Shown one piece after another: positions 25,683 through 54,730 of a stretch of DNA of 60,693 bases. The DNA lies in the IMG/VR virus record IMGVR_UViG_3300029604_000003. One strand, given 5' to 3'. The DNA is from a virus. The translations under genes and the position numbers were made by a program. The notes under the pieces are model-generated. The model saw only the letters and a list, made by a program, of their open reading frames with translations. It had not been told where the DNA came from and did no database searches. Numbering within the stretch: the stretch's first letter is position 1; every line of letters begins with the position of its first letter.

Positions 25683-25950
25683 TATAAACCTCCGTCTTAT
25701 TTTGAGGGTAAATGAAACTTCCGTATTGACCGAGTTCATTTGCCTTGTTTACATAATAGTCCTGATTAGGTCTGTGACTAGCATTAGCGTCTCTTTTAAC
25801 TTCGAGTAATGCCCAACCTTCTCTGTCCAATAAAACTAAATCCGGAATGCCCTGTTTGTAATTAGGGTCGTTCTTTAAAATAATAGAATCTGGGAATAAC
25901 TCTTTTAACTCCGAAATTATATCGGATTGAATTTTGTTTTCTTTCTTCAT
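25624..25950 (-). CDS. VRR-NUC domain nuclease (108 aa)
   Basis: KQGIPDLVLLDREGWALLEVKR matches the VRR-NUC G.PD...(E)VK core. The start ATG at 25950 is preferred; the longer track ORF begins in the intergenic promoter region. Confidence 0.6.
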   Translation of the reverse strand: MKKENKIQSDIISELKELFPDSIILKNDPNYKQGIPDLVLLDREGWALLEVKRDANASHRPNQDYYVNKANELGQYGSFIYPQNKTEVYNGIQETFTSKRRRSRISRS

Positions 25951-26085
25951 TGTTATCCTTTCGTGAGGCCGGAGGTAAACGTAATGGCAGATTGTAGTAA
26001 ACAGACGTAAGAACTTTAATACATAAATGAGCCCCACGAAAAGACAAACAAAAAGAGAAAGAGGCAGATTCTGCTCTCCTCCCCT

Positions 26086-26110
26086 ATAATAATCCATGTT
26101 TTTTTCGCGA
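26086..26110 (-). promoter_or_regulatory. Promoter-like motif, variant copy (TCGCG-N14-TATTAT)
   Basis: The minus strand reads TCGCG AAAAAAACATGGAT TATTAT, between the helicase stop and the VRR-NUC gene. Confidence 0.4.
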
Positions 26111-26113
26111 GGC

Positions 26114-27319
26114 CTATTTTATGAAAGCAGACTCGTTGAAGTTCTTTTTCTGAGCTAGAGCTCTTGTAATTCTAAGCTCAATTGGACTTCTACATTTTAA
26201 GTGAAAGTACTTAAGTTCTTTGTATGGTGTAGTAAGTCTGTCGATTCTTCCACTTGCCTGTTTCATCATTTTATACGAATAGTTTTGTGAATAGAAAACC
26301 ATCGTGTCTGTTTTTATACAATTCCATGCTTCCGACCCAGCGTTATACTGAACCAAGTAAAGCCATTTTAAATTGCCGAACGGTTCCGGATCATGCCGAT
26401 GTCCATTTAACTCAGCAATTATAACATCTTCTCCAAAGTCTATATTTTTGATTATCTCCAACTCGTAATCGAAATTGTAGAAAACTATCAGCTTGTTATG
26501 TTCTTCGAAAATATTTCGTAATGCTTCGGCTCTGCTTTCATCAGCGTAGCAGATCTTTCTTAGCTTATAGCACAACTCGCTAACGTTTTCTATTGGTTCA
26601 CCTTTTTCATAATCGAAACGATTTTTCATAAGGTCCTTATAAGCTTCCTTATTGAACGAACACCAAACGTCTTCATGATGTTGAACCGCTGGATTCTGGT
26701 ATGGCATGTCTACTAAAACTCTTCTTCTTAATCTATTCAGTCTTTCAGTTCCAATGAATCTTTCGATTTGAGGGAACTTACTAAATCTAGAATACACACA
26801 ATGTTCTGCAGTGAACTCACTTTTATTTTTGTAGAAACCATTTGCAATGAAGACTGGCATGTAGTCCATATAGTTATCACCAGGCGTTGCAGATAATAAT
26901 ATCCAGTCATTGGCCTTTGCAATCTTTAGGAATGACTTAGTCCAAGCGCCATAACCAACTACTCGCTGTTCGTCAAAAATAAAGAAGCTGTTTTTAACGT
27001 CAGCATATTTCTTAATATTGTTCCATGAGTCTATGACTATTTTATGATCATAGATCTTAGAATTATCGTCTGGTGTTAAATGAAACCAACTCATGTCTCC
27101 AAGCCATTCGCCGCTATCTCTTTTCTTAGCAGTTGTTATGATGTAGAGATCTTTTGGATTTTTCATCTTTGTCATTGGCTCTAGCTCTCCACCATTTCGG
27201 ATGAAGTAGTACGCGAGTCCGGTAATAGATTTACCAGACCCTGTACCGCCACAAAGTATACAGCCGTTATGCATTTTCCTTATCGCACTCTTTTGGTGCG
27301 GCTTCAACTTTAATTCCAT
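26114..27319 (-). CDS. SF2 (DEAD/SNF2-like) helicase (401 aa)
   Basis: Motif I is CGGTGSGKS, motif II is FIFDEQ, and the C-terminal helicase motifs include QASGRIDR. Confidence 0.75.
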   Translation of the reverse strand: MELKLKPHQKSAIRKMHNGCILCGGTGSGKSITGLAYYFIRNGGELEPMTKMKNPKDLYIITTAKKRDSGEWLGDMSWFHLTPDDNSKIYDHKIVIDSWNNIKKYADVKNSFFIFDEQRVVGYGAWTKSFLKIAKANDWILLSATPGDNYMDYMPVFIANGFYKNKSEFTAEHCVYSRFSKFPQIERFIGTERLNRLRRRVLVDMPYQNPAVQHHEDVWCSFNKEAYKDLMKNRFDYEKGEPIENVSELCYKLRKICYADESRAEALRNIFEEHNKLIVFYNFDYELEIIKNIDFGEDVIIAELNGHRHDPEPFGNLKWLYLVQYNAGSEAWNCIKTDTMVFYSQNYSYKMMKQASGRIDRLTTPYKELKYFHLKCRSPIELRITRALAQKKNFNESAFIK

Positions 27320-27320
27320 A

Positions 27321-27776
27321 TTAATCTAAGTCAGCGTATTTCTCGGCGAACTTGTTTTCACGAATTGTTACATACATCGAATCAACATATGCGGTGATTC
27401 CAGTACGACCATTCATCTCCCATTCGTAAGGACGAATTGAAATATCACAGTTTACAATGTCAACAACATCAAGCTGGGATACTGTGTCTTCATCCAGGAG
27501 CGTCTTGTGATTACCGACAATAAGCCATACCTGTGTATAACGGTTCATATTGAGTTTTACAGGAAGAGTCCATTCCTGTTCAGAGTCATCTGCTCCTTCT
27601 TGAAGAGGACGATCTTTTACATTCCATCCTTCCTGTCTCAGTTCATCAGCCATTACTGTATCATCAATTACAACACTGAATCCTCTTTTACCAGGATTGA
27701 ATTTATCTCTTTCTCCTGAAAAGTTCTTCCAAATAATCATTGCGCCTTCAATGTTAATATTGTTTACGTTTGCCAT
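27321..27776 (-). CDS. Putative ssDNA-binding protein (151 aa)
   Basis: Lies between the polymerase and helicase genes and has an OB-fold-like beta-rich pattern with an acidic C-terminus (EKYADLD). The assignment is tentative. Confidence 0.35.
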   Translation of the reverse strand: MANVNNINIEGAMIIWKNFSGERDKFNPGKRGFSVVIDDTVMADELRQEGWNVKDRPLQEGADDSEQEWTLPVKLNMNRYTQVWLIVGNHKTLLDEDTVSQLDVVDIVNCDISIRPYEWEMNGRTGITAYVDSMYVTIRENKFAEKYADLD

Positions 27777-35387: not shown

Positions 35388-35545
35388 TTTGACCCCTCCT
35401 TATTATATGCTGGGTTATCTTTGCACATGTATCTACATGCTCCCTGATTTCTTACCTGAATATAACACTCATCGAAATAAGGGCACGACATCTCTTGTTC
35501 AGTATATGTATAATCTTCTCTAGATGTATGATCAAATTCCTGCAT
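35384..35545 (-). CDS. Small Cys-containing protein (53 aa), not in ORF track
   Basis: MQEFDHTSREDYTYTEQEMSCPYFDECYIQVRNQGACRYMCKD... It has a GGAGG RBS, and its stop overlaps the next ATG. Confidence 0.35.
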   Translation of the reverse strand: MQEFDHTSREDYTYTEQEMSCPYFDECYIQVRNQGACRYMCKDNPAYNKEGSK

Positions 35546-35883: not shown

Positions 35884-35997
35884 TTTGATTCCTCCTATTT
35901 TTCGAAAAATGAAAGGAGATGCAAATGGGATATGGACCCACATCTCTGGTATGGGGATACCAGTGCACTGCTATTGTGCTATTACGCATCTCTTCTC

Positions 35998-36022
35998 ATT
36001 ATAAGCTTTGTTTTTTATGCGA
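35998..36022 (-). promoter_or_regulatory. Promoter-like motif TCGCA-N14-TATAAT
   Basis: The minus strand reads TCGCA TAAAAAACAAAGCT TATAAT, followed by GAGAAG, immediately after the 36024 stop. Confidence 0.5.
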
Positions 36023-37026: not shown

Positions 37027-37434
37027 TTAAATTCCTCCATTTTTATTCTGCTCTTCTTCACGTCTTTGGCGCATAAAGTCATTGAGCTGAATAAGTATTT
37101 TCTTTTCAATCGTATCGCCGATACCAGGTATGGTTGTAAGTCTGTTATACTTAACCCATTCAATCAGCTCTTTAATGTCTTTAGCTCCTCTTTTAACTAA
37201 GAATTTTCTAGTTCTAGGTGTAATTGACTGTAGATATCTGAGATCGTATGGATCTTTATAGACTTCTTCACCACGGAATAGCCGTACCTTAGTAATTATC
37301 TCATATATTCGCTGTGTAGAGACATATTCGTCCATCGCTATCATGCGAACGCTGTCTCCACTCTGCCAACGATTGAAGATTTCCAGATCGCGTTCCGTTA
37401 CAGTCCAGTTACTCATTTTTCTTTTGTCGCACAT
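37027..37434 (-). CDS. Putative transcription factor: sigma region-4-like HTH plus helix-hairpin-helix (135 aa)
   Basis: VTERDLEIFNRWQSGDSVRMIAMDEYVSTQRIYEI resembles sigma-70 region 4 / LuxR-type HTH. TIPGIGDTIEKKI is an HhH (GIG) motif. Confidence 0.45.
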   Translation of the reverse strand: MCDKRKMSNWTVTERDLEIFNRWQSGDSVRMIAMDEYVSTQRIYEIITKVRLFRGEEVYKDPYDLRYLQSITPRTRKFLVKRGAKDIKELIEWVKYNRLTTIPGIGDTIEKKILIQLNDFMRQRREEEQNKNGGI

Positions 37435-39268: not shown

Positions 39269-40237
39269 TCATCTCTGTGATACTTCGCCGTAAATGCAAC
39301 CATCACAGTTGAAGTCGATCAGTAATGTTCTTTCATTTTCACCAGTTTCTTCATTCGGAACCATAACCCACTTGGTCAGGAATGTTACATTGTTGTCGAA
39401 CTTGCCATAGTCCGGATCTTTCTGGCTTCTGTATCTCCAACCATGTGTAAGACCAATGTCAGTAGGCTTCAGACCAATCATACGGTATACGTCATTAAGT
39501 GTCAGGATTCCTTCGCATTTTAACCGTGTATCTGCTTCCTTCTCACGCTGTGCAAGCATGAATTCATTTTGAGGGTTGTCATTGAACCACTCAGTAGAGT
39601 TCTCTCTGTTAAAGAGTCTTGCATACGGTGAGCCACCAAAGTTTCTGATAATCTCCTGCTCCTCAGTTACCTTCTTTTTCTCACCTGTCTCCGGATCTGT
39701 CTCAGTCTTCTTAACTGTCTTCTTTTCAGATCCATACAGCATTTCCTTGTCAACTTCTTCGCCGTACTTGTTGATTACATTTTGACGGTATGTCTGATAA
39801 GCCTTAACAATTGCTGCACAAGATGCTGCTAATGCCGCCTGACGCTGTTTCATAATATGATGAGATCCAAGAATGAGCCCGATAGATGCTACCTCAAGAA
39901 TTGCAGGTCCAACATAAAGCTTAACATACTCTAATGCTGTTTTACGCTTTAAGAGAACCATATCGTTTGCTGCATCTTCTCTTGTGTAAGGCTTATCGAG
40001 AGAATCCGGATCTTCTTCATACTTTGCTACTGTCTCTACGATCTTCTGTTTTGTAGCTTCTTCGTTTCTCTGTACTGCTGCAACTTTGAGTGTTGCTCTC
40101 TGTGTCATAATCAGAGCTCCAATACCTGCTCCAATACCTGCAATTAGCATGATCTCTGGAGAGTTCATTTTGGTCCAGGCCTTAGTATGGCCTACTACTG
40201 TTGATAAACTTGTTACTGCTGTGTCTAATGCTTTCAT
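39269..40237 (-). CDS. Two-TM membrane protein, paralog family member 1 (322 aa)
   Basis: Shares an architecture with 43165-43995 and 44010-44840: a short N-terminal segment, TM1 (IMLIAGIGAGIGALIM), TM2 (VGPAILEVASIGLILGS), a helix, then a C-terminal domain containing GW. From unverified memory this may be Pfam DUF6353. Confidence 0.6.
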   Translation of the reverse strand: MKALDTAVTSLSTVVGHTKAWTKMNSPEIMLIAGIGAGIGALIMTQRATLKVAAVQRNEEATKQKIVETVAKYEEDPDSLDKPYTREDAANDMVLLKRKTALEYVKLYVGPAILEVASIGLILGSHHIMKQRQAALAASCAAIVKAYQTYRQNVINKYGEEVDKEMLYGSEKKTVKKTETDPETGEKKKVTEEQEIIRNFGGSPYARLFNRENSTEWFNDNPQNEFMLAQREKEADTRLKCEGILTLNDVYRMIGLKPTDIGLTHGWRYRSQKDPDYGKFDNNVTFLTKWVMVPNEETGENERTLLIDFNCDGCIYGEVSQR

Positions 40238-41898: not shown

Positions 41899-42081
41899 TT
41901 ATTTTGTTGTTATTATATATCTCTTACCACAATGTTGGCATTCAATATAAGATATAACTGCTTTTAATTCGCCTCTAGAATAAAGCTTATCTTCTTTGAT
42001 GTTTTCTCTATCCGAGAATCTACAACCGCAATTTTCACAATCATAAATAGTCCTGCTTCCAAACTCAATGATTTTGCTCAT
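41899..42081 (-). CDS. Small zinc-ribbon protein, tandem triplet copy 1 (60 aa, diverged)
   Basis: MSKIIEFGSRTIYDCENCGCRFSDRENI...CQHC. Confidence 0.55.
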   Translation of the reverse strand: MSKIIEFGSRTIYDCENCGCRFSDRENIKEDKLYSRGELKAVISYIECQHCGKRYIITTK

Positions 42082-42716
42082 TAGTCAAGTTCCTCCAATC
42101 TCGGCATCTCTAATACATATCCGCCGTCTCTAGACTTTCTAATATGAGCTCCACCAAGTTCATACCAACCATAATGGAAGTCATTTGCCTGTGTCGGAAT
42201 ACCAAGTGACTCGTATACATCTCCGACTGATACAGAATCATACTTGTCAAGATACTCAGTTAAGGTATCAAGAGTTAAATCTGCATCTGCTCGAGTCTTA
42301 AATCGGATGTTGTCCATATCGTATCTAGCCCGTCCTCGAGGAGCCGATCTACGTCTACGGTCATCAAACCTGTCATCGTACGATACTCGCTCTACGCTAC
42401 CACGACTGAAGCTACTACGTCCACGTGATCTACGTCTTGTATCGCCATAGAATGCCATGTTGATAGCACCTTCAACCATATCAACGAATGTGTCCTTTAA
42501 CGCTGGAATCAGAACATCATTAAAGATATACGATCCAACACCTTCGGATTCATCGCTTAAGAATGTTTCTCCGAATTTCTGACCCAGGGATTTTTTCTGA
42601 GTCGTTACTCTATTCTTTACCACTTTTTCAATCTTCTGACGCTCTTCAGATTTTGTAGATTTCTTATTTGTTGCCTTTGCGCCAGTAGCGATTGAGTTGC
42701 TCTCCAATCTTTCCAT
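42081..42716 (-). CDS. Hypothetical protein with Arg/Ser-rich central tract (211 aa)
   Basis: Minus-strand ORF. Its central tract reads RRRSRGRSSFSRGSVERVSYDDRFDDRRRRSAPRGRARYD. Confidence 0.55.
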   Translation of the reverse strand: MERLESNSIATGAKATNKKSTKSEERQKIEKVVKNRVTTQKKSLGQKFGETFLSDESEGVGSYIFNDVLIPALKDTFVDMVEGAINMAFYGDTRRRSRGRSSFSRGSVERVSYDDRFDDRRRRSAPRGRARYDMDNIRFKTRADADLTLDTLTEYLDKYDSVSVGDVYESLGIPTQANDFHYGWYELGGAHIRKSRDGGYVLEMPRLEELD

Positions 42717-42739
42717 TTTAGCTCCTTTCTAAGAAAAAA

Positions 42740-42770
42740 GTCTAAGACCATGTTTCCATGATCCCAGACC
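42740..42770 (-). terminator. Intrinsic terminator, GAAA-loop hairpin family
   Basis: The minus strand reads GTCTGGGATCATG-GAAA-CATGGTCTTAGAC (13 pairs including G-U) followed by TTTTTTC. Confidence 0.7.
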
Positions 42771-42795
42771 TTAAGATTTCCAATCTTGTTAAGTA

Positions 42796-43101: not shown

Positions 43102-43137
43102 ACTTTTGTCCTCCTTAAATTTTTTGGTATATCTCTC

Positions 43138-43162
43138 ATTATAATATATGATTTTTTTGCGA
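43138..43162 (-). promoter_or_regulatory. Promoter-like motif TCGCA-N14-TATAAT
   Basis: The minus strand reads TCGCA AAAAAATCATATAT TATAAT, followed by GAGAG. Confidence 0.55.
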
Positions 43163-43164
43163 CC

Positions 43165-43995
43165 CTACATTAACTCGCGGTAATCAAACCTCGGATTTGC
43201 GAAATATCCAATTGTCAGGCACGGCTTTCCATTCCTTAACGTTGAGTCGAACTGCACATCCACATAAGTGTCTGGTGACCATCCTACGTCATCTCCTACT
43301 TCTACGTGACTTGCATTTACTTCATCGTAGAATTCATTCAGAGATATAAACATCTCACCGCCAAGGAATCGATCCTTTATCTTTCCAACGGCCTGCAGTA
43401 TTTCTTCTCTTGTCGAATAGAACACATTGCCTGTATAGAGGTCAATACAAACCTCTTTTCCTTCTGGCATGCCATCAAACTTAGACTCTGAGATCTCTTT
43501 TACCTGTTCGTCCCTAGCAGCTTTGGTAGCTTTGACATCTGTCTTTGGTGATACCTTAGCTACATTTCTACGGTATCTGTCATATGCATTAGCCGTGAAC
43601 TCGTACATTGCTGTCATAGCTGTAAGTCTGGCTGTGCTGATTTTGTATGATCCGACGAATGCTGAGATGCTTAAAGCCCCTAAAATCACTGTAGGGACAT
43701 AGCACTTCCAGCAAGACTTTACTATCTGCTTTGGTCCAAGTTCCTCAAATCTATAAGCCATATCAGACTTTGCTACAGACATTGGAAGATCCTCATATTC
43801 GATCTCTCCATTTTCATATCTGTTTGCAATCTCATCATCCATTTTGTCAATTGCCATTGGCGTAGCTTTAACCGCACTGATTACAGTAGCAGCTAATCCT
43901 CCGATCCCAGCAATCATAAGAAGCATTGGTGCATTCTTATCGGCAATGACTGGAACCTTATTTGCCTCCTTAATTAAACTGTTTAATAAACTCAT
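43165..43995 (-). CDS. Two-TM membrane protein, paralog family member 2 (276 aa)
   Basis: Same architecture as 39269-40237 and 44010-44840 (TM1 MLLMIAGIGGLAATVISAV; TM2 VPTVILGALSISAFVGS). Confidence 0.6.
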   Translation of the reverse strand: MSLLNSLIKEANKVPVIADKNAPMLLMIAGIGGLAATVISAVKATPMAIDKMDDEIANRYENGEIEYEDLPMSVAKSDMAYRFEELGPKQIVKSCWKCYVPTVILGALSISAFVGSYKISTARLTAMTAMYEFTANAYDRYRRNVAKVSPKTDVKATKAARDEQVKEISESKFDGMPEGKEVCIDLYTGNVFYSTREEILQAVGKIKDRFLGGEMFISLNEFYDEVNASHVEVGDDVGWSPDTYVDVQFDSTLRNGKPCLTIGYFANPRFDYRELM

Positions 43996-44009
43996 TTTGT
44001 TCTCCTTTC

Positions 44010-44840
44010 TTATATCAGCATGCTTGAACTGTATTCCATGTCTTTGAACCAGCCTTTAACTTCTCGTTTTTCCTGTTTAGTTTCCATGAATAACCCATGC
44101 GGTAAATCAAGATACCGTATATAGTAACCATCAGTGTTTTCAAACGGCACAAGTTGAATATCAACCCATTCGTTTGTCTTGTCATTCTCGTCCATATCGA
44201 TCTTAGACCAACCTACAACGCTTCCGAAACTTGTTGGATGCAAATCGAGATCGTATCTAAACTGATCGTAAGTTACCGTGTGAGCAGGGCTTAATGCCAA
44301 TTTCCTATTCAGCTTTAATATAGCTGATTCTACTGTCGCTTTGTCAGCATAGAAACCCTCATCGGTAAGACTGTCAATAAAGAACGTCAATCCCGTTGTA
44401 TCTACGAATTTTGATTCCTGCTCAGATACTGTTTTCGTAATTGGAGCTCTGCTAGCTTTCCAAATATTTTCTTCTTTTTCTTTGCCTACCTCGTGTACTA
44501 CTTCCTCTCTATATCGCTTAAAGTTAGCCTGTAAGAGACTCATAGCTCCTGCTAATGCTGCCAGCTGTTTCTTGTTTAAGAAGTTTGATCCAAAGATGCA
44601 CCCTATTGTAGCAGCGCCAACTACAATAGACGGAGCGTAAATCGGAGCTACAACCTTTACCTCTTCAATAAACGTAAGCTCTCTATGCTTCTTTTTCTCA
44701 ATCTCGTCAACTTTAAGTGTTGCTTTGATGGATGCTTTATTTGTAAGGATGTTTGATACTACCACACCTATAGCCGCACCTATAGATAAAATAGTAGGCA
44801 TGTTTCTTTTAATAAAATATCCTACCTGTTCAGTGTTCAT
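44010..44840 (-). CDS. Two-TM membrane protein, paralog family member 3 (276 aa)
   Basis: Same architecture (TM1 ILSIGAAIGVVVSNIL; TM2 PSIVVGAATIGCIFGS), adjacent to member 2. Confidence 0.6.
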   Translation of the reverse strand: MNTEQVGYFIKRNMPTILSIGAAIGVVVSNILTNKASIKATLKVDEIEKKKHRELTFIEEVKVVAPIYAPSIVVGAATIGCIFGSNFLNKKQLAALAGAMSLLQANFKRYREEVVHEVGKEKEENIWKASRAPITKTVSEQESKFVDTTGLTFFIDSLTDEGFYADKATVESAILKLNRKLALSPAHTVTYDQFRYDLDLHPTSFGSVVGWSKIDMDENDKTNEWVDIQLVPFENTDGYYIRYLDLPHGLFMETKQEKREVKGWFKDMEYSSSMLI

Positions 44841-44864
44841 TTTGACTCCTTTCTAGAAAAGGTA

Positions 44865-44884
44865 GAGGACCTGAATTAGTCCTC
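44865..44884 (-). terminator. Hairpin GAGGAC-N8-GTCCTC overlapping a stop codon (copy 1 of 2)
   Basis: gaggacctgaattagtcctc is identical to 48722-48741. In both copies the hairpin spans the ...EDED-stop end of a small gene. Confidence 0.5.
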
Positions 44885-45031
44885 ATCCTCTTTTTTGTCG
44901 GTTGATTCTAAAGCCTTTACTTTGTTATCGACTGCCTTATCGATACTTAACTGTGTCAAACAGATTCCTAAGAATCCTGCTATAGCAGTACATCCGATCT
45001 GGCCAATCTTTAATAAAGTTTCTTTGCCCAT
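44876..45031 (-). CDS. Small single-TM protein (51 aa), not in ORF track
   Basis: MGKETLLKIGQIGCTAIAGFLGICLTQLSIDKAV...KKEDED, with a GGAGGTGATAAAATG start context. Confidence 0.4.
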   Translation of the reverse strand: MGKETLLKIGQIGCTAIAGFLGICLTQLSIDKAVDNKVKALESTDKKEDED

Positions 45032-45322
45032 TTTATCACCTCCTATTATATGAAATGAATTATCTGCGATGTCGTCTTTCTGAAATCATCAGTACTATAA
45101 ACGCCGTTAAAAATGCTAATAAGAATGTATCCATAATAACTAACTCCTAATAAATATCTCTCTGAATTTCTTTTACGATCCTGTTAGTTTCTTCCTGCTG
45201 CTTGTCGTATTCATATCGTGTATATGCTCTAAACGATCCAAGTATAACGATCATTACAAGACAAAATATAAAGAATTTATCTTCCCTTTTCAATTTCCTC
45301 TCTCCTTCCTAGAAAAGCTTAA

Positions 45323-45342
45323 AGGCCATGTTTCCATAGCCT
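45323..45342 (-). terminator. GAAA-loop hairpin family terminator
   Basis: The minus strand reads AGGCTATG-GAAA-CATGGCCT followed by TTAAGCTTTTC. It is identical to the copy at 45716-45735. Confidence 0.6.
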
Positions 45343-45359
45343 ATAAACTTCGTTCTTTA

Positions 45360-45644
45360 TTATTTTGTGTTTCGATCCTGAAATTCTACTAAAGCCTTAA
45401 CAACTTCGGTATTTTCAATGTTGTCTCTCAGCATACGATCGTGAAAATCACTCATGCCTTTCTGCCATCCGTTTCTGTATGCTTCTGCATTTGTCATGCC
45501 AATGTACTTTCCAATCATAGCACCACAAGCACGACCAGTTGCAACAGCAATTACAGTCGTAGCGCAGAAAGCGATGATATCACTCTTATGCTCAACAACA
45601 TACTCTTTTGCCTCGTTAAGTTTCTGTTTAGTTTTTTCTTTCAT
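45360..45644 (-). CDS. Small single-TM protein (94 aa)
   Basis: Hydrophobic helix IIAFCATTVIAVATGRACGAMIG. The gene has its own promoter and terminator. Confidence 0.55.
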   Translation of the reverse strand: MKEKTKQKLNEAKEYVVEHKSDIIAFCATTVIAVATGRACGAMIGKYIGMTNAEAYRNGWQKGMSDFHDRMLRDNIENTEVVKALVEFQDRNTK

Positions 45645-45681
45645 TTTAATTCTCCTTTCAACTTAAAACAATAAAGTTCTC

Positions 45682-45706
45682 ATTATAGACTAAGAATTAT
45701 TTGCGA
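45682..45706 (-). promoter_or_regulatory. Promoter-like motif TCGCA-N14-TATAAT
   Basis: The minus strand reads TCGCA AATAATTCTTAGTC TATAAT, followed by GAGAACTTTATTGTT. Confidence 0.6.
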
Positions 45707-45715
45707 AAAGCTTAA

Positions 45716-45735
45716 AGGCCATGTTTCCATAGCCT
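45716..45735 (-). terminator. GAAA-loop hairpin family terminator
   Basis: The minus strand reads AGGCTATG-GAAA-CATGGCCT followed by TTAAGCTTTTC, directly upstream of the promoter-like motif. Confidence 0.6.
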
Positions 45736-45757
45736 ATAAACTTAACTTTCTTGTTTC

Positions 45758-46153
45758 TCAGATCTTCGTCTTTGGAAAGATCCCCGGAAATGCCTTACTA
45801 AGTATTGCTCCTCCATTACCTTCGAAGACCATCACTCCGATGCTAAGACCGGCCCAAGCGGCCAGCGTTACTCCGGATTTGATCAACTCTAATTTTGAAT
45901 TAGTTTTAGACTGCTCCAGTTCGCGTTCTCTAATGTCGAGTTCTCTTTCTTTGTGATCAAACTCTTTCATTTTGATATCGCGCTCCTGTGTGAGCTTATC
46001 TTCTTCTAATTTCAATTTGTAGAAGCTAACCAAATTGTCGGCAATAGCGTTTCGCTCGTCTCCAATCTTTTCATCGAAGAGTTTATTGTCCTCTTCAATA
46101 ATAGTTTGCTCTAATACCTCTCTTAAGTTTTCAGTTCCTTCTTCTCTTGCCAT
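45758..46153 (-). CDS. Coiled-coil protein with C-terminal TM helix (131 aa)
   Basis: A Glu/Lys-rich helical body is followed by GVTLAAWAGLSIGVMVF. Confidence 0.55.
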   Translation of the reverse strand: MAREEGTENLREVLEQTIIEEDNKLFDEKIGDERNAIADNLVSFYKLKLEEDKLTQERDIKMKEFDHKERELDIRERELEQSKTNSKLELIKSGVTLAAWAGLSIGVMVFEGNGGAILSKAFPGIFPKTKI

Positions 46154-46190
46154 ATTTGACTCCTTTCAATATTATAACAATAAAGTTCTC

Positions 46191-46215
46191 ATTATAAGCC
46201 CTGTTTTATTTGCGT
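46191..46215 (-). promoter_or_regulatory. Promoter-like motif, variant (ACGCA-N14-TATAAT)
   Basis: The minus strand reads ACGCA AATAAAACAGGGCT TATAAT, followed by GAGAACTTTATTGTT. It overlaps the 3' end of the upstream gene. Confidence 0.5.
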
Positions 46216-46437
46216 GCCTGACATACGCCTAACTTCGAACGTTACTGTATCGGAATTGTACATCTCTTTAAGAGAGTCTTTTCCCTTAACCTCAAGAGCA
46301 CAGTAGTACCCTTCGCTATCCTCGTCCCTAGCCATTTTGATGATGCCTGGGCAAGACATTTTCGTTACGTTTTTGCCAACATGCATACCGACAATATACC
46401 CAAGAGTTACACATATAATGCATACTAATACGTTCAT
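46192..46437 (-). CDS. Small N-terminal-TM protein (81 aa)
   Basis: MNVLVCIICVTLGYIVGMHVG hydrophobic N-terminus. Confidence 0.5.
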   Translation of the reverse strand: MNVLVCIICVTLGYIVGMHVGKNVTKMSCPGIIKMARDEDSEGYYCALEVKGKDSLKEMYNSDTVTFEVRRMSGTQIKQGL

Positions 46438-46438
46438 T

Positions 46439-46822
46439 TTAATTCCTCCTTATCTTTTTATATCCTATTACTATAGCTTCGATATCTCCGCATCTAATAC
46501 CTCCTTGAACTGCGGATGTGTAGGAAAACTCTGCGAGCGCTTTTTGGAGTTTGTCTGAAGATGATATTGTCTCTTGTGCAAATAAATATCTAGGGATAGA
46601 TGTGTGATCATAATATGTGACTCTTTTTGCATAGTTTTTCACCGCCTTTTTGAATGCTTGAACCTTGCCGTACTGGAACCATTTATAAGAGAAGTAGATC
46701 CTTATATGATCTGGTCTAGTGACAGTGGTTATTACGTCCCAGCCATTACGCATTGTAATAATATCGTGAACCATATAGTAAATATAATTCCGTCTAGAAA
46801 TATCAATATGAGTTTTAAACAT
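46439..46822 (-). CDS. Hypothetical early protein (127 aa)
   Basis: Minus-strand ORF with ATGA-type coupling to the upstream gene. Confidence 0.5.
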   Translation of the reverse strand: MFKTHIDISRRNYIYYMVHDIITMRNGWDVITTVTRPDHIRIYFSYKWFQYGKVQAFKKAVKNYAKRVTYYDHTSIPRYLFAQETISSSDKLQKALAEFSYTSAVQGGIRCGDIEAIVIGYKKIRRN

Positions 46823-47277
46823 TATAATCCCTCCTTCATAGTTTTAAACAGGTGCTCGAAGCTGTCATCATTGAATTCAATTGCATGACAGATATCTTTT
46901 GATATATCCCTAGTATCAACTGGAGTTCCTTTTGGCGATTTACCAGCGATTAACGGGCTCTTGCCTATTGTCTTCATAACTGAATTCAGCTCGATATATT
47001 TTGACAGCTTTACAGCCTTGAATCCAGACAAGTCTACAATGCCAGATGCAACATGAATATCAAAGATATTGTTGTCCAGGTACACCATCTTCTTATCAAG
47101 ATCTCTTGCTGAGAACGGAATAATCATACTCTGATCATTGTCCCGGTATAAGAAGACAGCAGACAACATGCCTCCACAATTCGGAACTAACCGAATAGAA
47201 TTGCAATCTGATGCTACCTTACTCTCGTAGAAATGGCCATCCAATCCAACGAAATCCTCAACATACTTTACTACCAT
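46822..47277 (-). CDS. Hypothetical early protein (151 aa)
   Basis: Minus-strand ORF with an AAGGAGGATACAAAAATG start context. Confidence 0.55.
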   Translation of the reverse strand: MVVKYVEDFVGLDGHFYESKVASDCNSIRLVPNCGGMLSAVFLYRDNDQSMIIPFSARDLDKKMVYLDNNIFDIHVASGIVDLSGFKAVKLSKYIELNSVMKTIGKSPLIAGKSPKGTPVDTRDISKDICHAIEFNDDSFEHLFKTMKEGL

Positions 47278-47334
47278 TTTTGTATCCTCCTTTAATTTAA
47301 AAAATATAAAAGGAGAAGCCTATGTAGGCCCCTC

Positions 47335-47508
47335 CTAGTTTTTGTGATGTTTTTTCCAGATATGTTTGATGATAGCATAGATTATCAATCCTGCCACTAT
47401 CACATCTCCGAAAGTGAACAGTATTGAAATACCTCCTGCTAAGAGCAGTGCTATTCCAACTACTATCACTCCTAATAAAATAGCTCCTAAAATTATCAAT
47501 GTAATCAT
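47335..47508 (-). CDS. Small two-TM protein (57 aa), not in ORF track
   Basis: MITLIILGAILLGVIVVGIALLLAGGISILFTFGDVIVAGLIIYAIIKHIWKKHHKN, with an AAGGAGGAATGTAAGATG start context. Confidence 0.45.
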   Translation of the reverse strand: MITLIILGAILLGVIVVGIALLLAGGISILFTFGDVIVAGLIIYAIIKHIWKKHHKN

Positions 47509-47530
47509 CTTACATTCCTCCTTTCATCTC

Positions 47531-47555
47531 ATTATACACTATGAGATTTTTGCGA
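47531..47555 (-). promoter_or_regulatory. Promoter-like motif TCGCA-N14-TATAAT
   Basis: The minus strand reads TCGCA AAAATCTCATAGTG TATAAT, followed by GAGAT. It overlaps the 3' end of 47539-47778. Confidence 0.55.
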
Positions 47556-47778
47556 GGCGTTCAAGCTCATCCATTACGAGGCTAATTCCCTCAAGTTTAC
47601 CTTTTAAGCGTTCCGTTTCCATAAGAATATGTAACCCTTCTACTGAATCTTCATCCGGTAACGCTTTTGCTTTCTGGTTCAATTCTTTTGCTCGTGTTAA
47701 GATTTTCTCTGCTTCTTTATTTGAGAAATCAATCATAGCTATTAACTTACTGTGTGTTAAAATTTCGTTTAATGTCAT
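47539..47778 (-). CDS. Small coiled-coil protein (79 aa)
   Basis: Helical Glu/Lys/Leu-rich ORF with an AAAGGAGTCAAAATG start context. Confidence 0.5.
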   Translation of the reverse strand: MTLNEILTHSKLIAMIDFSNKEAEKILTRAKELNQKAKALPDEDSVEGLHILMETERLKGKLEGISLVMDELERLAKIS

Positions 47779-47802
47779 TTTGACTCCTTTCTAGAAAAGC
47801 TT

Positions 47803-47828
47803 ATAGACCATGTTTCCATAGTCTATAA
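47803..47828 (-). terminator. GAAA-loop hairpin family terminator
   Basis: The minus strand reads TATAGACTATG-GAAA-CATGGTCTATA (11 pairs) followed by AGCTTTTC. Confidence 0.6.
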
Positions 47829-47923
47829 ACCTTATTACTACTCATTATTTTCTTGGTTTTCTTACTCCATAATTGTATGGTTTTTTCATACTAATCACCT
47901 CCTTATAATAATGTTTAGTTCTC

Positions 47924-47948
47924 ATTATAATGAATGAAATATTTGCGA
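47924..47948 (-). promoter_or_regulatory. Promoter-like motif TCGCA-N14-TATAAT
   Basis: The minus strand reads TCGCA AATATTTCATTCAT TATAAT, followed by GAGAAC. Confidence 0.6.
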
Positions 47949-47960
47949 GATAAAAGAAAG

Positions 47961-47980
47961 AGCCAATGTTTCCACTGACT
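47961..47980 (-). terminator. GAAA-loop hairpin family terminator (diverged)
   Basis: The minus strand reads AGTCAGTG-GAAA-CATTGGCT (8 pairs including two G-U) followed by CTTTCTTTT. Confidence 0.5.
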
Positions 47981-47988
47981 CATCCTAG

Positions 47989-48099
47989 TTAGAATAGTAA
48001 AGCTCCTATTCCAAGACCGATTCCTACCAGTGCAATTACCGGTCCTAAAATCGCTAATGTAATAAATACCTTTACTATGTTTGCTAAGAATTCTTTCAT
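47989..48099 (-). CDS. Tiny single-TM peptide (36 aa), not in ORF track
   Basis: MKEFLANIVKVFITLAILGPVIALVGIGLGIGALLF, with an AAAGGAGGAGCTAAAAGATG start context between a promoter and a terminator. Confidence 0.4.
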   Translation of the reverse strand: MKEFLANIVKVFITLAILGPVIALVGIGLGIGALLF

Positions 48100-48122
48100 C
48101 TTTTAGCTCCTCCTTTCTTCCT

Positions 48123-48147
48123 ATTATAGGAACAGAATATCTTGCGA
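48123..48147 (-). promoter_or_regulatory. Promoter-like motif TCGCA-N14-TATAAT
   Basis: The minus strand reads TCGCA AGATATTCTGTTCC TATAAT, followed by AGGAAG. Confidence 0.55.
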
Positions 48148-48155
48148 AAAAGGAA

Positions 48156-48173
48156 CGGGCTTTGAATCGCCCG
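48156..48173 (-). terminator. Intrinsic terminator hairpin
   Basis: The minus strand reads CGGGC-GATTCAAA-GCCCG followed by TTCCTTTTTC. Confidence 0.55.
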
Positions 48174-48186
48174 CGTCCCTAGACCT

Positions 48187-48411
48187 CTATTTAGTTGTGT
48201 TTTGATTTTTCTTCTTTCTCTTATCGAAATATGTCTGCAATTGGAAATACTCCCAAACTGATGCAAAATATCCAACAGCACTAAATGTTATTCCGATCCA
48301 GAGACCTACATTGTAGATCATCCAGAATCCAATGAACATTAGTAATGTTGGTGCGCATACAAAGCTTAAAGCTGACGCCAATGCAAATAATTTTTCTAAT
48401 CTTTTCTTCAT
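48187..48411 (-). CDS. Small two-TM protein (74 aa)
   Basis: Two hydrophobic helices (LFALASALSFVCAPTLLMFIGFWMI; LWIGITFSAVGYFASVW) and a basic C-terminus. Confidence 0.55.
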   Translation of the reverse strand: MKKRLEKLFALASALSFVCAPTLLMFIGFWMIYNVGLWIGITFSAVGYFASVWEYFQLQTYFDKRKKKNQNTTK

Positions 48412-48441
48412 ATCAAATTACCTCCTAAATGTTTAATCTTC

Positions 48442-48466
48442 ATTATAGTACATGAATATGCTGCGA
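48442..48466 (-). promoter_or_regulatory. Promoter-like motif TCGCA-N14-TATAAT
   Basis: The minus strand reads TCGCA GCATATTCATGTAC TATAAT, followed by GAAGAT. Confidence 0.55.
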
Positions 48467-48473
48467 AAAGAAA

Positions 48474-48492
48474 GAGGCCTTGTTTAAGCCTC
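48474..48492 (-). terminator. Intrinsic terminator hairpin overlapping stop codon
   Basis: The minus strand reads GAGGC-TTAAACAAG-GCCTC followed by TTTCTTTTC. Confidence 0.5.
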
Positions 48493-48669
48493 AATCTCAG
48501 ATTCGTTCATTTCGTTTACAATTCGGTTATACGCCCTTACACCTGTGTCTTTGTCGCATGTCCTTTTTAATACTTCATCAGTTCTTCTATCAACTACTAA
48601 GTATCCATTACTAGACACCTCCTGAACAAGTGCTATAGTTCCATTGCTTTTTACTAAATCGTAATACAT
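48484..48669 (-). CDS. Small soluble protein (61 aa)
   Basis: MYYDLVKSNGTIALVQEVSSNGYLVVDRRTDEVLKR... The start ATG at 48669 follows AAAGGAGTG. Confidence 0.5.
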   Translation of the reverse strand: MYYDLVKSNGTIALVQEVSSNGYLVVDRRTDEVLKRTCDKDTGVRAYNRIVNEMNESEIEA

Positions 48670-48685
48670 ATAAATCACTCCTTTC

Positions 48686-48710
48686 ATTATATGAAAAGAA
48701 AAATATGCGA
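48686..48710 (-). promoter_or_regulatory. Promoter-like motif TCGCA-N14-TATAAT
   Basis: The minus strand reads TCGCA TATTTTTCTTTTCA TATAAT, followed by GAAAGGAG, so the RBS follows almost at once. Confidence 0.55.
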
Positions 48711-48721
48711 AGAAAAGAAGA

Positions 48722-48741
48722 GAGGACCTGAATTAGTCCTC
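48722..48741 (-). terminator. Hairpin GAGGAC-N8-GTCCTC overlapping a stop codon (copy 2 of 2)
   Basis: Identical 20-mer to 44865-44884, followed on the minus strand by TCTCTTCTTTTCTTC. Confidence 0.55.
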
Positions 48742-48918
48742 ATCCTCTTCGTCATAACTAAACGCCATTGCTACAAAATATGCAATAATTCCACATCCAA
48801 ATGCTACAATTGGGTTCATGATTCCTACCATAGTCAATACCGCAATTACAAGTATTGCTACTGGGAATATAGTGATTAACCAACGTCCATCTTTGAATAT
48901 CTTTAATAATTCTTTCAT
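48733..48918 (-). CDS. Small two-TM protein (61 aa)
   Basis: WLITIFPVAILVIAVLTMVGIM and IVAFGCGIIAYFVAMAF helices, with an acidic C-terminus DEEDED. Confidence 0.55.
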   Translation of the reverse strand: MKELLKIFKDGRWLITIFPVAILVIAVLTMVGIMNPIVAFGCGIIAYFVAMAFSYDEEDED

Positions 48919-48954
48919 ATTTATGTACCTCCTTTAAATACGTCTCTAGTTCCT

Positions 48955-48979
48955 ATTATAGGAAAGGAATTAAATGCGA
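48955..48979 (-). promoter_or_regulatory. Promoter-like motif TCGCA-N14-TATAAT
   Basis: The minus strand reads TCGCA TTTAATTCCTTTCC TATAAT, followed by AGGAAC. Confidence 0.55.
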
Positions 48980-48993
48980 GGTAAAAATATAAA

Positions 48994-49011
48994 GCCCATG
49001 TTTCCATGAGC
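48994..49011 (-). terminator. GAAA-loop hairpin family terminator
   Basis: The minus strand reads GCTCATG-GAAA-CATGGGC followed by TTTATATTTTT. Confidence 0.55.
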
Positions 49012-49032
49012 AATATATTTTGATTTGTTGGT

Positions 49033-49248
49033 TTATTTGGTTTTCTTTTTGATAAGTTTCTCTTCAATGATACTCCAAATTACTAAACCTGCGCCTATAC
49101 CGATCATAGTAAGTGAGGCACCTTTGATAAGTCCGTCACGGTACATTTGACCGCCGAAGTTTATCAAAGCGTTACACTCATCACTACTCATCTTATTAGC
49201 GAGATTTTCAATAATGTTCTTCTGTTCATCTGTGATAACACTACTCAT
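49033..49248 (-). CDS. Small protein with C-terminal TM helix (71 aa)
   Basis: MSSVITDEQKNIIENL...GASLTMIGIGAGLVIWSII. The start ATG at 49248 follows AGGAGGTGATTTAT. Confidence 0.55.
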   Translation of the reverse strand: MSSVITDEQKNIIENLANKMSSDECNALINFGGQMYRDGLIKGASLTMIGIGAGLVIWSIIEEKLIKKKTK

Positions 49249-49262
49249 ATAAATCACCTCCT

Positions 49263-49287
49263 ATTATAATAACAGATTTATTTGCGA
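49263..49287 (-). promoter_or_regulatory. Promoter-like motif TCGCA-N14-TATAAT (first of the early array)
   Basis: The minus strand reads TCGCA AATAAATCTGTTAT TATAAT, followed by AGGAGG. Confidence 0.6.
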
Positions 49288-53049: not shown

Positions 53050-53403
53050 TTATGTCAAAGACTCGCTAGTAGCCTCCGATTCCGAACTGTCGCCGTCTGT
53101 TGTACTAACTGGGTCATTCTTGTAAGCTCTGATAGTAACGTCATTAGATAATCCGTCATGAATCTCAATGACGTTGTCCAGCTTGAACCCGTCGAATGTA
53201 GTGACATTTCCATTGTCGTCTGTAATCTCCATATGAGAAATATTGTCTGCATTACGAGCAGTAGAAGCGATTCTGTCAAACACTGCTGGGGATTCGTATG
53301 TTGAAGTAATGTTCAGATAAGTTCTACCGGACTGATTCTGAGCATACTCTCTTGTAAATTTTCGAATATCAACTGTCGTTCCATTTCCAAATTTAAGTTT
53401 CAT
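53050..53403 (-). CDS. Hypothetical late protein (117 aa)
   Basis: Minus-strand ORF whose start overlaps the end of the radical SAM gene by 11 nt. It has an acidic Ser-rich tail. Confidence 0.55.
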   Translation of the reverse strand: MKLKFGNGTTVDIRKFTREYAQNQSGRTYLNITSTYESPAVFDRIASTARNADNISHMEITDDNGNVTTFDGFKLDNVIEIHDGLSNDVTIRAYKNDPVSTTDGDSSESEATSESLT

Positions 53404-54730
53404 TTTGATCCTCCTTACTTAATTCTTTAAGCATATCAAGTTCTTCCTCTCCGATAATAGGAATAGCCCATTCATCCGGACAGTATATTTTGAATCTTTG
53501 TTTCCAATGTTTCTTACGATACCACTTATTCCAGAAATATGCATTTGCAAGAGATCTGGTCTTGTGCATATCGCAAATATAAGTACAACGAGAATCCGGT
53601 GTTCCATTTTCCTGATAGTTGTATGCAGAGCACCAACTGCAGCCTTCAGCAATAGGACAATAGAAGCATTCGTCACTAGACTCTGTTCTTCTGTCAATTT
53701 TATTGAGGCACTCAACGCACTGCTTATCGCATTTTCTTTGAGCAATTCCGAAATTGACATGGCCAATTCTAAGAGGCTCTCGGGATGTACCTAGACTGCT
53801 TTCCATATATCTGATGCATGGGTAAAGCCATCCATCGGGGTCCATTGCTAACATGAAGCCAGTTCCTCCGCACCAGTTTTCAAGATCTGTTTCTTCCTTT
53901 GGTTTGAAGAAGTCATTCTCGAATAATGCCATGAAATGGTCATCAGCTAAGTCATTTTCAAGCCAATAATCGGCTAACATTTTGAGCTGCTCATAATAGA
54001 TTTTCGCGTGCTCCAATGTCCATCCTTTTTCATAAACGACATTCGCATTGATATCTTTGTATCCAAGTTCTACCATATGCTTAATCGCCGAGAATAGATG
54101 CTGCACATTACCTGGCGCTATGGTGATCTTAGAGCCCATATAGTATCCCCTTGATATCCAATCACGAGCTCCAGCTACTGCCACATCATAAGACCCAGTA
54201 CCATCTGGAAAGACTCTACAAGCATCATGCAGAGCCTTATTTCCATCGATGGTAATTGAGAAAGAGAGATTATGCCGCCATTTGTTCAGGAACTTCTGAA
54301 CCTTAGGCTCAAAATATAATACACCATTTGAGCAAATCGAAATACAGAATTTTGTTGCCCATGGATGCATCAACTCGATAGCTTTATCATAGAAATACGT
54401 GCAAATCTGATCAATAAGATCCACGCATAAGAAAGGCTCTCCGCCAATAAACTCAATGATAATACCAGGTGATGTAGAGGCGTCGATGTAGTTACCGAGG
54501 CGTTCATCACCGGTAAGAAGCATATCAATAAGTTTCTTTGCATCTTCGAACTTCATTTTTCTCTTGCCTTTGTTTATCTGGTAACAGTAGGTACAGCACA
54601 AGTTACACTCGTCTGTTACTTGAAAAGTCACGGTACGAGATAAAGTTCTTCTGTCAGACGCATTATTTGTAATAATTGTCTCAGGATACAACCTTCCAAT
54701 CATATCCTGAAACTGTTCAAACTTCTTCAT
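53393..54730 (-). CDS. Radical SAM / SPASM-domain maturase (445 aa), anSME/peptide-maturase-like
   Basis: FQVTDECNLCCTYCY carries CxxxCxxC (nt 54584-54607), and GGEP follows. The C-terminal region has auxiliary-cluster cysteines (WCGGTG...YPC...CDKQCVECL...CFYCP..EGCSWC...RCTYICDMHK). Confidence 0.85.
   Translation of the reverse strand: MKKFEQFQDMIGRLYPETIITNNASDRRTLSRTVTFQVTDECNLCCTYCYQINKGKRKMKFEDAKKLIDMLLTGDERLGNYIDASTSPGIIIEFIGGEPFLCVDLIDQICTYFYDKAIELMHPWATKFCISICSNGVLYFEPKVQKFLNKWRHNLSFSITIDGNKALHDACRVFPDGTGSYDVAVAGARDWISRGYYMGSKITIAPGNVQHLFSAIKHMVELGYKDINANVVYEKGWTLEHAKIYYEQLKMLADYWLENDLADDHFMALFENDFFKPKEETDLENWCGGTGFMLAMDPDGWLYPCIRYMESSLGTSREPLRIGHVNFGIAQRKCDKQCVECLNKIDRRTESSDECFYCPIAEGCSWCSAYNYQENGTPDSRCTYICDMHKTRSLANAYFWNKWYRKKHWKQRFKIYCPDEWAIPIIGEEELDMLKELSKEDQNET

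Follow-up and report, generated by a model that had tools for sequence, protein, structure and literature searches.

The stretch of DNA analysed here, referred to below as the window, is IMG/VR virus record IMGVR_UViG_3300029604_000003, a phage sequence of 60,693 nucleotides (nt) whose genes all lie on one strand. Across an array of small genes at 43,138 to 49,287, and at a few places beyond it, a bipartite element recurs with the form TCGCA-N14-TATAAT. Eleven exact copies are present in the 60.7-kb window, every one on the minus strand, compared with 0.06 on average, and 1 at most, in 100 dinucleotide-preserving shuffles. The sequence-only reading, an earlier annotation made from the letters of this DNA without database searches, had listed ten exact copies, all correctly placed, and had overlooked an additional one at 45045-45069. 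Its two one-off variants at 46191 (ACGCA) and 26086 (TCGCG/TATTAT), also on the minus strand, were both found. A position weight matrix (PWM) scan of both strands adds one weak site at 35398-35426 and gives no comparable score on the plus strand. The resulting bias, 14 coding-strand sites against 0 comparable on the opposite strand, recurs in every relative, and the motif count and strand preference claimed earlier are upheld.

Aligning the copies reveals a fuller consensus, TCGCA-N6-(T/A)C-N6-TATAAT-RRRA, in which a (T/A)C dinucleotide (WC) is conserved exactly 6 nt past the TCGCA box and 6 nt ahead of the hexamer. The four positions directly past the hexamer (+1 to +4) are purines in 13 of 13 window sites, reading GAGA or AGGA. 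A Shine-Dalgarno (SD) sequence and the start codon of a minus-strand gene follow every copy at a distance of 14-50 nt, in agreement with the earlier statement that the copies lie just upstream of gene starts. In the copies at 49263 and 45045 the SD AGGAGG directly abuts TATAAT. The sequence GAGAACTTTATTGTT trails two copies, and a related sequence trails a third.

The individual sites, all on the minus strand, differ in score and in what surrounds them. Copy 1 (49259-49287, 18.6 bits) reads TCGCAAATAAATCTGTTATTATAAT followed by AGGA and is one of the two in which the hexamer abuts the SD; the other is copy 10 (45041-45069), the one previously overlooked. Five copies stand immediately past a hairpin: copy 2 (48951-48979; hairpin 48994-49011), copy 3 (48682-48710; GAGGAC hairpin 48722-48741), copy 4 (48438-48466; hairpin 48474-48492), copy 5 (48119-48147; hairpin 48155-48174) and copy 6 (47920-47948; hairpin 47960-47981). 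Copy 7 (47527-47555) is without an upstream terminator and lies within the 3′ end of an open reading frame (ORF) of 79 amino acids (aa), and copy 8 (46187-46215, 33.5 bits), the ACGCA variant, lies within the 3′ end of an 81-aa ORF. Copy 9 (45678-45706) is at the head of a 393-nt cassette consisting of the promoter-like element, a 94-aa ORF and a hairpin. Copy 11 (43134-43162) is detected both as an exact match and by PWM, and copy 12 (35994-36022), with the top PWM score of the window (36.7 bits), heads a run of small ORFs. The weak candidate at 35398-35426 (GTGCA...TATAAT-AAGG) scores 12.5 bits. Finally, the variant copy at 26082-26110 (TCGCG...TATTAT-AGGG) heads an operon for an endonuclease, an exonuclease and a putative RNA polymerase (RNAP).

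Equivalent variants occupy the head of this operon at a conserved position in four relatives (L004:42768, L005:45973, L012:45799 and L010:45837). Together with the window copy they form a weaker and distinct type, with the box (A/C)CGCA or TCGCG, the hexamer TATAGT, TATGAT or TATTAT, and the start AGAA or AGGG. A conserved variant ahead of the RNAP operon suggests autoregulated or differently timed expression of the polymerase. In and beside the array are three paralogous DUF6353 proteins of 322, 276 and 276 aa (39269-40237, 43165-43995 and 44010-44840, minus strand), members of a family conserved in 9-10 of 10 relatives.

Terminator hairpins and cassette exchange

The hairpins associated with these sites, all on the minus strand, fall into two groups. 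The GAAA-loop family has five close copies, at 42735-42779 (with a U-tract, -21.4 kcal/mol), 45313-45357, 45706-45750, 47795-47839 (-21.2 kcal/mol) and 48983-49020, and one variant at 47952-47981. The hairpin at 45313-45357, at a cassette boundary, is a direct repeat of 45706-45750, whose U-tract continues into the CGCA of copy 9; that at 48983-49020 precedes copy 2, and the variant precedes copy 6. The family proposed in the sequence-only reading is thus real, but the core CATG-GAAA-CATG by which it was defined occurs literally in 2 hairpins alone, the remaining ones reading TATGGAAACATG or AGTGGAAACATT. The second group consists of two GAGGAC hairpins, at 44858-44892 and 48721-48749, which had been described as an identical pair and do match at 29 of 29 positions; in the close relative MT838480, described below, an extra whole cassette lies just past the T-tract of the first. 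Folding gave energies of -14 to -21 kcal/mol for eight hairpins (z -3.4 to -8.3), with a U-run behind every one of them. The region holds more terminator-like sites than expected (12 versus 4.3). The earlier description of promoter-like units paired with terminators and bracketing one- or two-gene cassettes is supported. In most units the terminator T-tract leads directly into the CGCA of the next promoter-like copy.

The mobility of these units could be followed in one relative, the fragment MT838480, which is 88-91% identical to the window and is the only close relative in the annotated collection. The differences between the two are entire promoter-gene-terminator units. For example, the 393-nt window unit at 45705-45313 (CGCA...TATAAT, leader, 94-aa ORF, GAAA hairpin, TTTT) is missing from the corresponding slot of MT838480; a lone hairpin there leads straight to the next SD. 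Elsewhere MT838480 does carry a homologous unit, with a 94-aa-like gene and the same hairpin, and its insertion point is precisely where the T-tract of the GAGGAC hairpin (window 44865) meets the SD of the 276-aa gene. Its promoter-like element is 89% identical to window copy 48442 and its leader about 83% identical to copy 45682. The break-points in this single comparison are the T-tract/CGCA and T-tract/SD junctions. As judged from the alignment, the terminator-promoter junctions are thereby shown to be break-points of cassette exchange, whoever reads the promoters, and the suggestion that they serve as recombination handles like the promoter early stem-loops (PeSLs) of T4 is borne out in that the unit ends fall exactly on the repeats.

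Spread of the motif across a phage lineage

By its protein content the window is a gut member of a supercluster that unites actinophage clusters AM, AU, AW, BI, DJ, CC and EL with the Lactococcus 1706-like phages and Faecalibacterium phage FP_oengus (10.1101/842583). The signature of this supercluster is a putative RNAP with helix-turn-helix domains (HTHs) at both ends (10.1101/842583), and two further hallmarks, both matched by the window, are the fusion of a protease with the capsid protein and a centrally placed array of small genes for membrane proteins (PMC5513430, PMC13313380). The window counterpart of the polymerase is an 899-aa protein. In tblastn it matches 250 phage records at full length and 39-49% identity, from Arthrobacter, Gordonia, Streptomyces, Lactococcus, Curtobacterium, Microbacterium, Rhodococcus and Faecalibacterium as well as human-associated viromes, and at least 8000 metagenomic protein clusters match it at E < 1e-10. 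A 1291-aa primase-polymerase has the same distribution. The closest named homologue of the 899-aa protein, 84% identical, is from a Lachnospiraceae metagenome-assembled genome, and the host of the window phage is probably a member of the Lachnospiraceae.

The motif has the same reach, its spacings and trailing GAGA unchanged. Counting PWM hits of at least 12 bits as forward/reverse, we obtained 16/0 in ReqiPepy6 (CC), 13/0 in Rima (Streptomyces), 12/0 in Gravy (DJ), 10/0 in Gordon (AU), 9/0 in Circum (AM; box TCGCG), 7/0 in RosaAsantewaa (BI), 6/0 in the oral contig89 and 6/0 in Lactococcus phage 1706 (box YCACA, hexamer TATAGT-AGAA). Phage P092 gave 5/0, one of them probably by chance; there the box is lost and ACATACCCTATAATGAGA retained. 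FP_Epona, an unrelated Faecalibacterium phage used as negative control, gave 0/0. The motif-bearing relatives have genomes of 33-59% GC and hosts in both Actinobacteria and Firmicutes. A 43-nt consensus of promoter plus leader from cluster DJ was found in 118 of 50,697 phage records, at 705 places, and its groups (Gordonia 55, Streptomyces 42, Arthrobacter 16, Rhodococcus 4, Caudovirus 1, and no other) all fall inside the host groups of the 250 RNAP-positive records (Arthrobacter 95, Gordonia 55, Streptomyces 54, Rhodococcus 4, Caudovirus 2, and others). By count, motif and RNAP co-occur in 55 of 55 Gordonia and 4 of 4 Rhodococcus records. In IMG/VR, the strict pattern TCGCA-N6-WC-N6-TATAATGAGA occurs in at least 119 stretches. 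Among the matches listed, these are typically contigs of 40-62 kb that often hold 2-9 matches on one strand, and a supercluster hallmark protein was present in 99 of the 119 on the part of their DNA that was examined; the 20 others comprise 16 fragments of at most 6.2 kb and four of 6-14 kb. We read the motif as a signature of the whole phage lineage and not of the host, and this lineage-wide, cross-phylum spread goes beyond what the sequence-only reading saw.

The manner of conservation bears on the origin of the copies. From one cluster to another neither spacers nor leaders are related (A+T-rich in the window, G+C-rich in actinophages), whereas TCGCA, WC, TATAAT and RRRA are fixed at exact spacing even though the shared proteins are only about 45-50% identical. 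Since these positions alone are fixed between clusters, selection on recognition positions is indicated, not shared descent of a repeat. One alternative would be a plain strong host promoter whose box and WC persist merely through spread by recombination, homogenisation and shared descent. The units do travel as cassettes, and leaders are also alike between copies of one genome, as this account would have it, but exact spacing amid wholly different surroundings is a mark of selection, and a strong host promoter should not be without both a -35 element and an extended -10. We regard this alternative as very unlikely.

FP_oengus carries a diverged form, with at least 12 copies of the homologous variant (A/G)CGCG-N6-WC-N6-yTTTAT-GRRR. 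In this phage (L009) the diverged promoter-like element is accompanied, at 2300-8400 and 22560-27700, by a repeated family of terminators peculiar to it (loop GAGAAATC/GAAAT), so that the cassette architecture has been conserved although both sequences changed. FP_oengus is temperate, and its small-gene array adjoins the integrase at the head of a long rightward transcription unit, a position typical of early genes. Together with the 'structural protein' label of the 1706 polymerase (see below), this placement hints at the early timing proposed in the sequence-only reading.

Additionally, the element stands directly ahead of a tRNA gene or tRNA-like sequences at L012:14376-14483, L005:23224-23466 and L011:20067 and 20455, the tRNA-like ones being uncalled by ARAGORN. 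ARAGORN found no tRNA in the window. In ReqiPepy6, tRNA-Ala begins at the 9th nt past the hexamer; because this site precedes a tRNA gene the element is not translational, and transcription from it must start at +9 or earlier, with no tighter bound. These sites weigh on the proposal that the motif is no promoter at all and serves as an operator in the DNA, as a site of recombination or as an element acting at the RNA level, for example in processing or translation. The motif does overlap the 5′ leader region of genes. Yet it is strictly strand-specific, lies between terminator and SD, has an A+T-rich hexamer followed by purines, precedes a tRNA in ReqiPepy6 and, unlike most operators, is not palindromic; a search of the window at Rfam gathering thresholds matched no family. 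A non-promoter role is thus extremely unlikely.

The putative polymerase and candidate readers of the sites

A canonical sigma-A promoter was considered and rejected for this element. Exactly 14 nt separate the conserved box from the hexamer, no -35 resembling TTGACA lies at 16-18 nt, and TTGACA-N16-18-TATAAT does not occur anywhere in the window. A sigma-70 scan of the region returned 24 sites against 27.6 expected and picked up none of the motif copies. The TG of an extended -10 is present at 0 of 13 window sites and 1 of 66 actinophage sites. The earlier statement that the upstream box is not a canonical -35 is therefore confirmed, and with the -35 and extended -10 tests both failing the element falls outside the sigma-70 promoter class.

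That earlier reading had left three candidate readers: host holoenzyme with an unusual upstream contact, a holoenzyme modified by a phage sigma-like factor, or the phage RNAP. Comparative evidence favours the last and leaves the sigma-like-factor route unsupported. The supposed factor, a 135-aa protein at 37027-37434, matches Mor and HhH below threshold only, and it lacks conservation among relatives that share the promoter. The 899-aa protein (22420-25119, minus strand) is a putative single-chain, two-barrel, YonO-like RNAP with two N-terminal HTHs and one C-terminal HTH. It matches PHROG 4291 end to end (E = 0) and holds GADFDGDT, the metal-binding loop of two-barrel RNAPs, which is invariant in 35 metagenomic and 11 phage homologues. 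Its C-terminal HTH clears the Pfam threshold for Sigma70_r4_2. A published HHpred search matched the family to PF05183 (RdRP family) at 95.7% and placed HTHs at both ends (10.1101/842583). An AlphaFold2 model (pLDDT, the predicted local distance difference test, 81; pTM, the predicted template-modelling (TM) score, 0.69) has as its top 50 Foldseek matches in the PDB only beta-prime, Rpb1, viral RNAP or crAss virion RNAP chains. The assignment as an RNAP, which rests on the motif, the published HHpred match and these weak fold matches, is putative. The non-structural proteins found in 10 of 10 relatives are the primase-polymerase, a single-stranded-DNA-binding/annealing protein, a helicase, two nucleases, the DUF6353 proteins, a 211-aa protein and the RNAP, and among them the RNAP is the sole one with recognisable DNA-binding transcription domains.

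We consider it moderately probable that TCGCA-N6-WC-N6-TATAAT-RRRA sites are promoters of this phage lineage that are recognised directly by the 899-aa RNAP. In such a scheme, the fused HTH domain or domains of the polymerase would contact the TCGCA box as well as the central WC, melting would take place at the A+T-rich TATAAT, and RNA would begin at the invariant purines directly downstream of the hexamer, a layout resembling that of T7-class promoters but served by an unrelated enzyme. Each promoter would drive one or two small genes, mostly for membrane proteins, until a strong hairpin and U-tract terminator halts transcription, its T-tract leading into the next promoter. The repeated terminator-promoter junctions would double as handles for homologous recombination through which units are gained, lost and moved. 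The operon of the polymerase itself would be under a weaker promoter copy, and if the polymerase is packaged in the virion the promoters could be read from the first minute of infection.

Several observations point to this reading. Conservation of the box across phyla requires a conserved reader. Positions +1 to +4 are close to 100% purine. At 66 actinophage sites +5 to +9 are pyrimidine- and C-rich, with 15% purine at +7, and a purine at +7 or +8 is found at only 18 of the 66. In the two window copies where AGGAGG abuts TATAAT, transcripts beginning 7 nt downstream would be left without the SD. The FP_oengus hexamer CTTTAT has no A at position 2, and no sigma-70 -10 is found there in any nearby register. 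An A at this position is indispensable for sigma-70-type -10 recognition.

The main competing explanation is that host sigma-A holoenzyme reads TATAAT as a true -10, while the part of the missing -35 would be played by a conserved, phage-encoded activator sitting on the TCGCA box, whose centre is near -29. The 899-aa protein could then be that activator, or could transcribe something else, such as late genes, in the way that YonO, its sole characterised relative, transcribes the SPbeta late genes from one promoter and does not serve early arrays (PMC5467207). The spacing of box and hexamer has a parallel in phage T4. T4 middle promoters combine a MotA box at -30 with a sigma-70 -10 and are used through sigma appropriation by AsiA and MotA, and the geometry seen here is MotA-box-like. 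The position of the RNAP gene, far downstream and itself behind a variant of the motif, also speaks for host transcription. The C-rich composition of the canonical start window in actinophages, the SD abutting TATAAT and the FP_oengus hexamer all speak against it. Moreover, no sigma, anti-sigma, MotA-like or AsiA-like protein was found among 30 window proteins compared with Pfam (20 of them also with PHROGs), many small ORFs lying outside that scan; the sole small DNA-binding candidate is the non-conserved 135-aa protein mentioned above, and an activator for the first-expressed genes would itself need to be injected. We judge this explanation unlikely, although several of the points that follow count in its favour.

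Those points all weigh against recognition by the phage polymerase. The hexamer is a perfect sigma-A -10 consensus: in 72 strict sites it is TATAAT in 59, the remainder keep T1, A2 and T6, and the natural variants TATAGT, TATGAT, TAAGAT and TATTAT follow the same sigma-70 rule. A purine is present at +7 or +8 in 11 of 13 window sites, and the purine-rich segment past the hexamer could be a discriminator contact of sigma region 1.2. The terminators that close the cassettes are of the classical intrinsic type, to which bacterial RNAP is known to respond. For the protein, single-sequence and profile searches of the PDB retrieved only the DFDGD stretch of the P23-45 RNAP-TMP (8h2m) and generic HTHs, and the Foldseek fold match is not significant (best E 0.012, TM < 0.2). 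The recognition helix of the C-terminal HTH differs among Circum, FP_oengus, 1706 and P092, whose boxes and hexamers differ as well (TCGCG; ACGCG with CTTTAT; YCACA with TATAGT-AGAA; box lost), but any covariation of HTH residues with box variants is anecdotal, having been judged by eye on 11 sequences from few independent lineages. The 1706 homologue of the RNAP (orf75) is called a 'structural protein' by the depositors of GenBank EU081845, which the ReqiPepy6 record echoes; the label stands on that annotation. Reader, start site and timing are themselves inferences from sequence.

With regard to timing, an evident objection is that the polymerase is encoded at the far end of the genome. The orf75 label softens it, provided that the label reflects virion proteomics. 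Virion-injected polymerases are known from N4, crAss-like phages and P23-45 (PMC10770324). This leads to a fuller version of the polymerase reading, which we advance only tentatively: a virion-packaged, sigma-free, single-chain two-barrel RNAP with its own HTHs, one of them sigma-region-4-like, would read a double-stranded TCGCA-14 bp-TATAAT promoter, start at the adjacent purines and, together with the phage primase-polymerase, make the phage independent of host transcription. Such independence could account for the spread of one lineage to hosts in both Actinobacteria and Firmicutes with its promoter unchanged.

Some further features touch the polymerase or its surroundings. A 197-aa ORF at 20010-20603 (minus strand), just upstream of terminase, shares the 24-residue motif LAHYGxxRxSGRYxWGSGxxPYQ with the extreme N-terminus of the RNAP (71% identity, E 3e-10), a segment that is disordered in the AlphaFold2 model. 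The motif of this ORF matches the RNAP N-terminus in 10 of 10 relatives, and weaker copies occur in orf7 of 1706, a virion protein; it may be a tag for virion incorporation or interaction. Conservation of the 197-aa ORF itself in 10 of 10 relatives was considered and rejected: all matches were to the RNAP N-terminal motif, and the loci were compared without the left ends of the genomes. A 38-nt inverted repeat (21753-21790/21843-21880, 92% complementary, 52-nt loop) sits in the 354 non-coding nt that separate the RNAP operon from the first genes of the structural module, where the genomes of linear relatives end. Possible roles are those of a cos/pac site, a large terminator or an origin. A second promoter class was looked for upstream of the structural genes, and only this long inverted repeat was found there. 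The 211-aa protein (42081-42716, minus strand; phrog_4079), present in 10 of 10 relatives, has an Arg-rich low-complexity centre (RRRRSRGRSSFSRG...RRRRSAPRGRAR) and could bind nucleic acid; it is the main unassigned candidate for an alternative factor that binds the motif. Elsewhere, the window contains a 2939-aa tape-measure-like ORF (570-9389, minus strand); in Thermus phage P23-45 the virion RNAP is fused to the tape-measure protein. Among the tail- and lysis-side genes lies an unusual cargo, a 445-aa radical-SAM-domain protein (53393-54730, minus strand; phrog_1802, E 2e-64).

Comparison with known systems

Part of this element has been described before. Gordonia phage Vardy (DJ) has five intergenic copies of a 50-bp motif with TATAAT in its transmembrane-gene array, which were read as possible sigma-70 -10 promoters (PMC9671010). 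This is the same element as in the window, but it was described in one phage and was unlinked to the RNAP, the TCGCA box, the other clusters or Firmicutes phages. Beyond the Vardy announcement, the literature we searched, with most subscription journals outside the search, held no mention of the link between motif and RNAP, the upstream box, the features unlike sigma-70, the cross-phylum conservation or the FP_oengus variant. How YonO-type single-chain RNAPs find promoters was left open when YonO was characterised (PMC5467207). A consensus about 29 bp long, whose natural instances run into the hundreds and which has natural specificity variants in Circum, 1706, P092 and FP_oengus, makes that question directly testable, and easily cultured phage-host pairs are available in Gordonia, Arthrobacter, Streptomyces and Lactococcus. 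Should the polymerase indeed read these sites, they would provide a compact, sigma-free orthogonal transcription system for high-GC and low-GC Gram-positives. The range across Actinobacteria and Firmicutes of a lineage with one promoter would then be explained, and annotators of gut and soil viromes would have in the motif a simple means of recognising the lineage and the structure of its operons.

Functionally, and by analogy, the element would act like a phage-polymerase promoter of the T7 or P23-45 class, and the units like PeSLs. As with the PeSLs of T4, short repeats that combine a terminator with a promoter lie on either side of small ORFs in a hyperplastic region, and it is at these repeats that indels and replacements distinguishing close relatives have their ends (PMC2839356, PMC4122927). 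The lineages are unrelated, the phages here being siphoviruses of Gram-positive hosts; T4 units use ordinary sigma-70 early promoters, whereas the window promoters are without a -35; and here the terminator precedes the promoter, its T-tract fused to the box. The PeSL concept is thus extended from T4-like myoviruses to an unrelated siphovirus lineage. T4 middle promoters share with the element a sigma-70-type -10 hexamer and a conserved box about 12-14 bp upstream without a -35. They differ in box sequence, no MotA or AsiA homologue was found among the 30 window proteins, the FP_oengus variant has no sigma-70-like hexamer, and the present motif is kept across host phyla.

The resemblance to T7-class promoters lies in a contiguous element of about 25-29 bp in which specificity resides upstream, melting in an A+T-rich segment follows and the first transcribed stretch is conserved and purine-rich, present in many copies per genome on a single strand, with variant promoters in relatives whose polymerases have diverged (cf. 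T7, T3, SP6). The T7 enzyme has the right-hand fold of the Pol A family, unlike the putative two-barrel fold here, and the start-site position in the window is inferred only. The closest parallel in enzyme type is with the promoters of two-barrel RNAPs, namely P23-45 gp96 (virion) and gp64 (non-virion), YonO, and gp66 of the crAss-like phage phi14:2. As would be the case here, they have a sigma-independent, phage-specific motif upstream of phage genes, and each P23-45 RNAP has a promoter motif of its own that is found across relatives wherever the gene for the enzyme is (PMC10770324). The window protein shares the DxDGD loop with these enzymes and would share their distant kinship with beta/beta-prime, and it may be delivered in the virion. 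YonO differs in that its promoter sequence is undefined and that it serves one late promoter, not an array (PMC5467207). The window family branches off separately and has two HTHs at the N-terminus and one at the C-terminus, and its putative promoter is bi- or tripartite, with a perfect sigma-70-like TATAAT that has been kept across two phyla.

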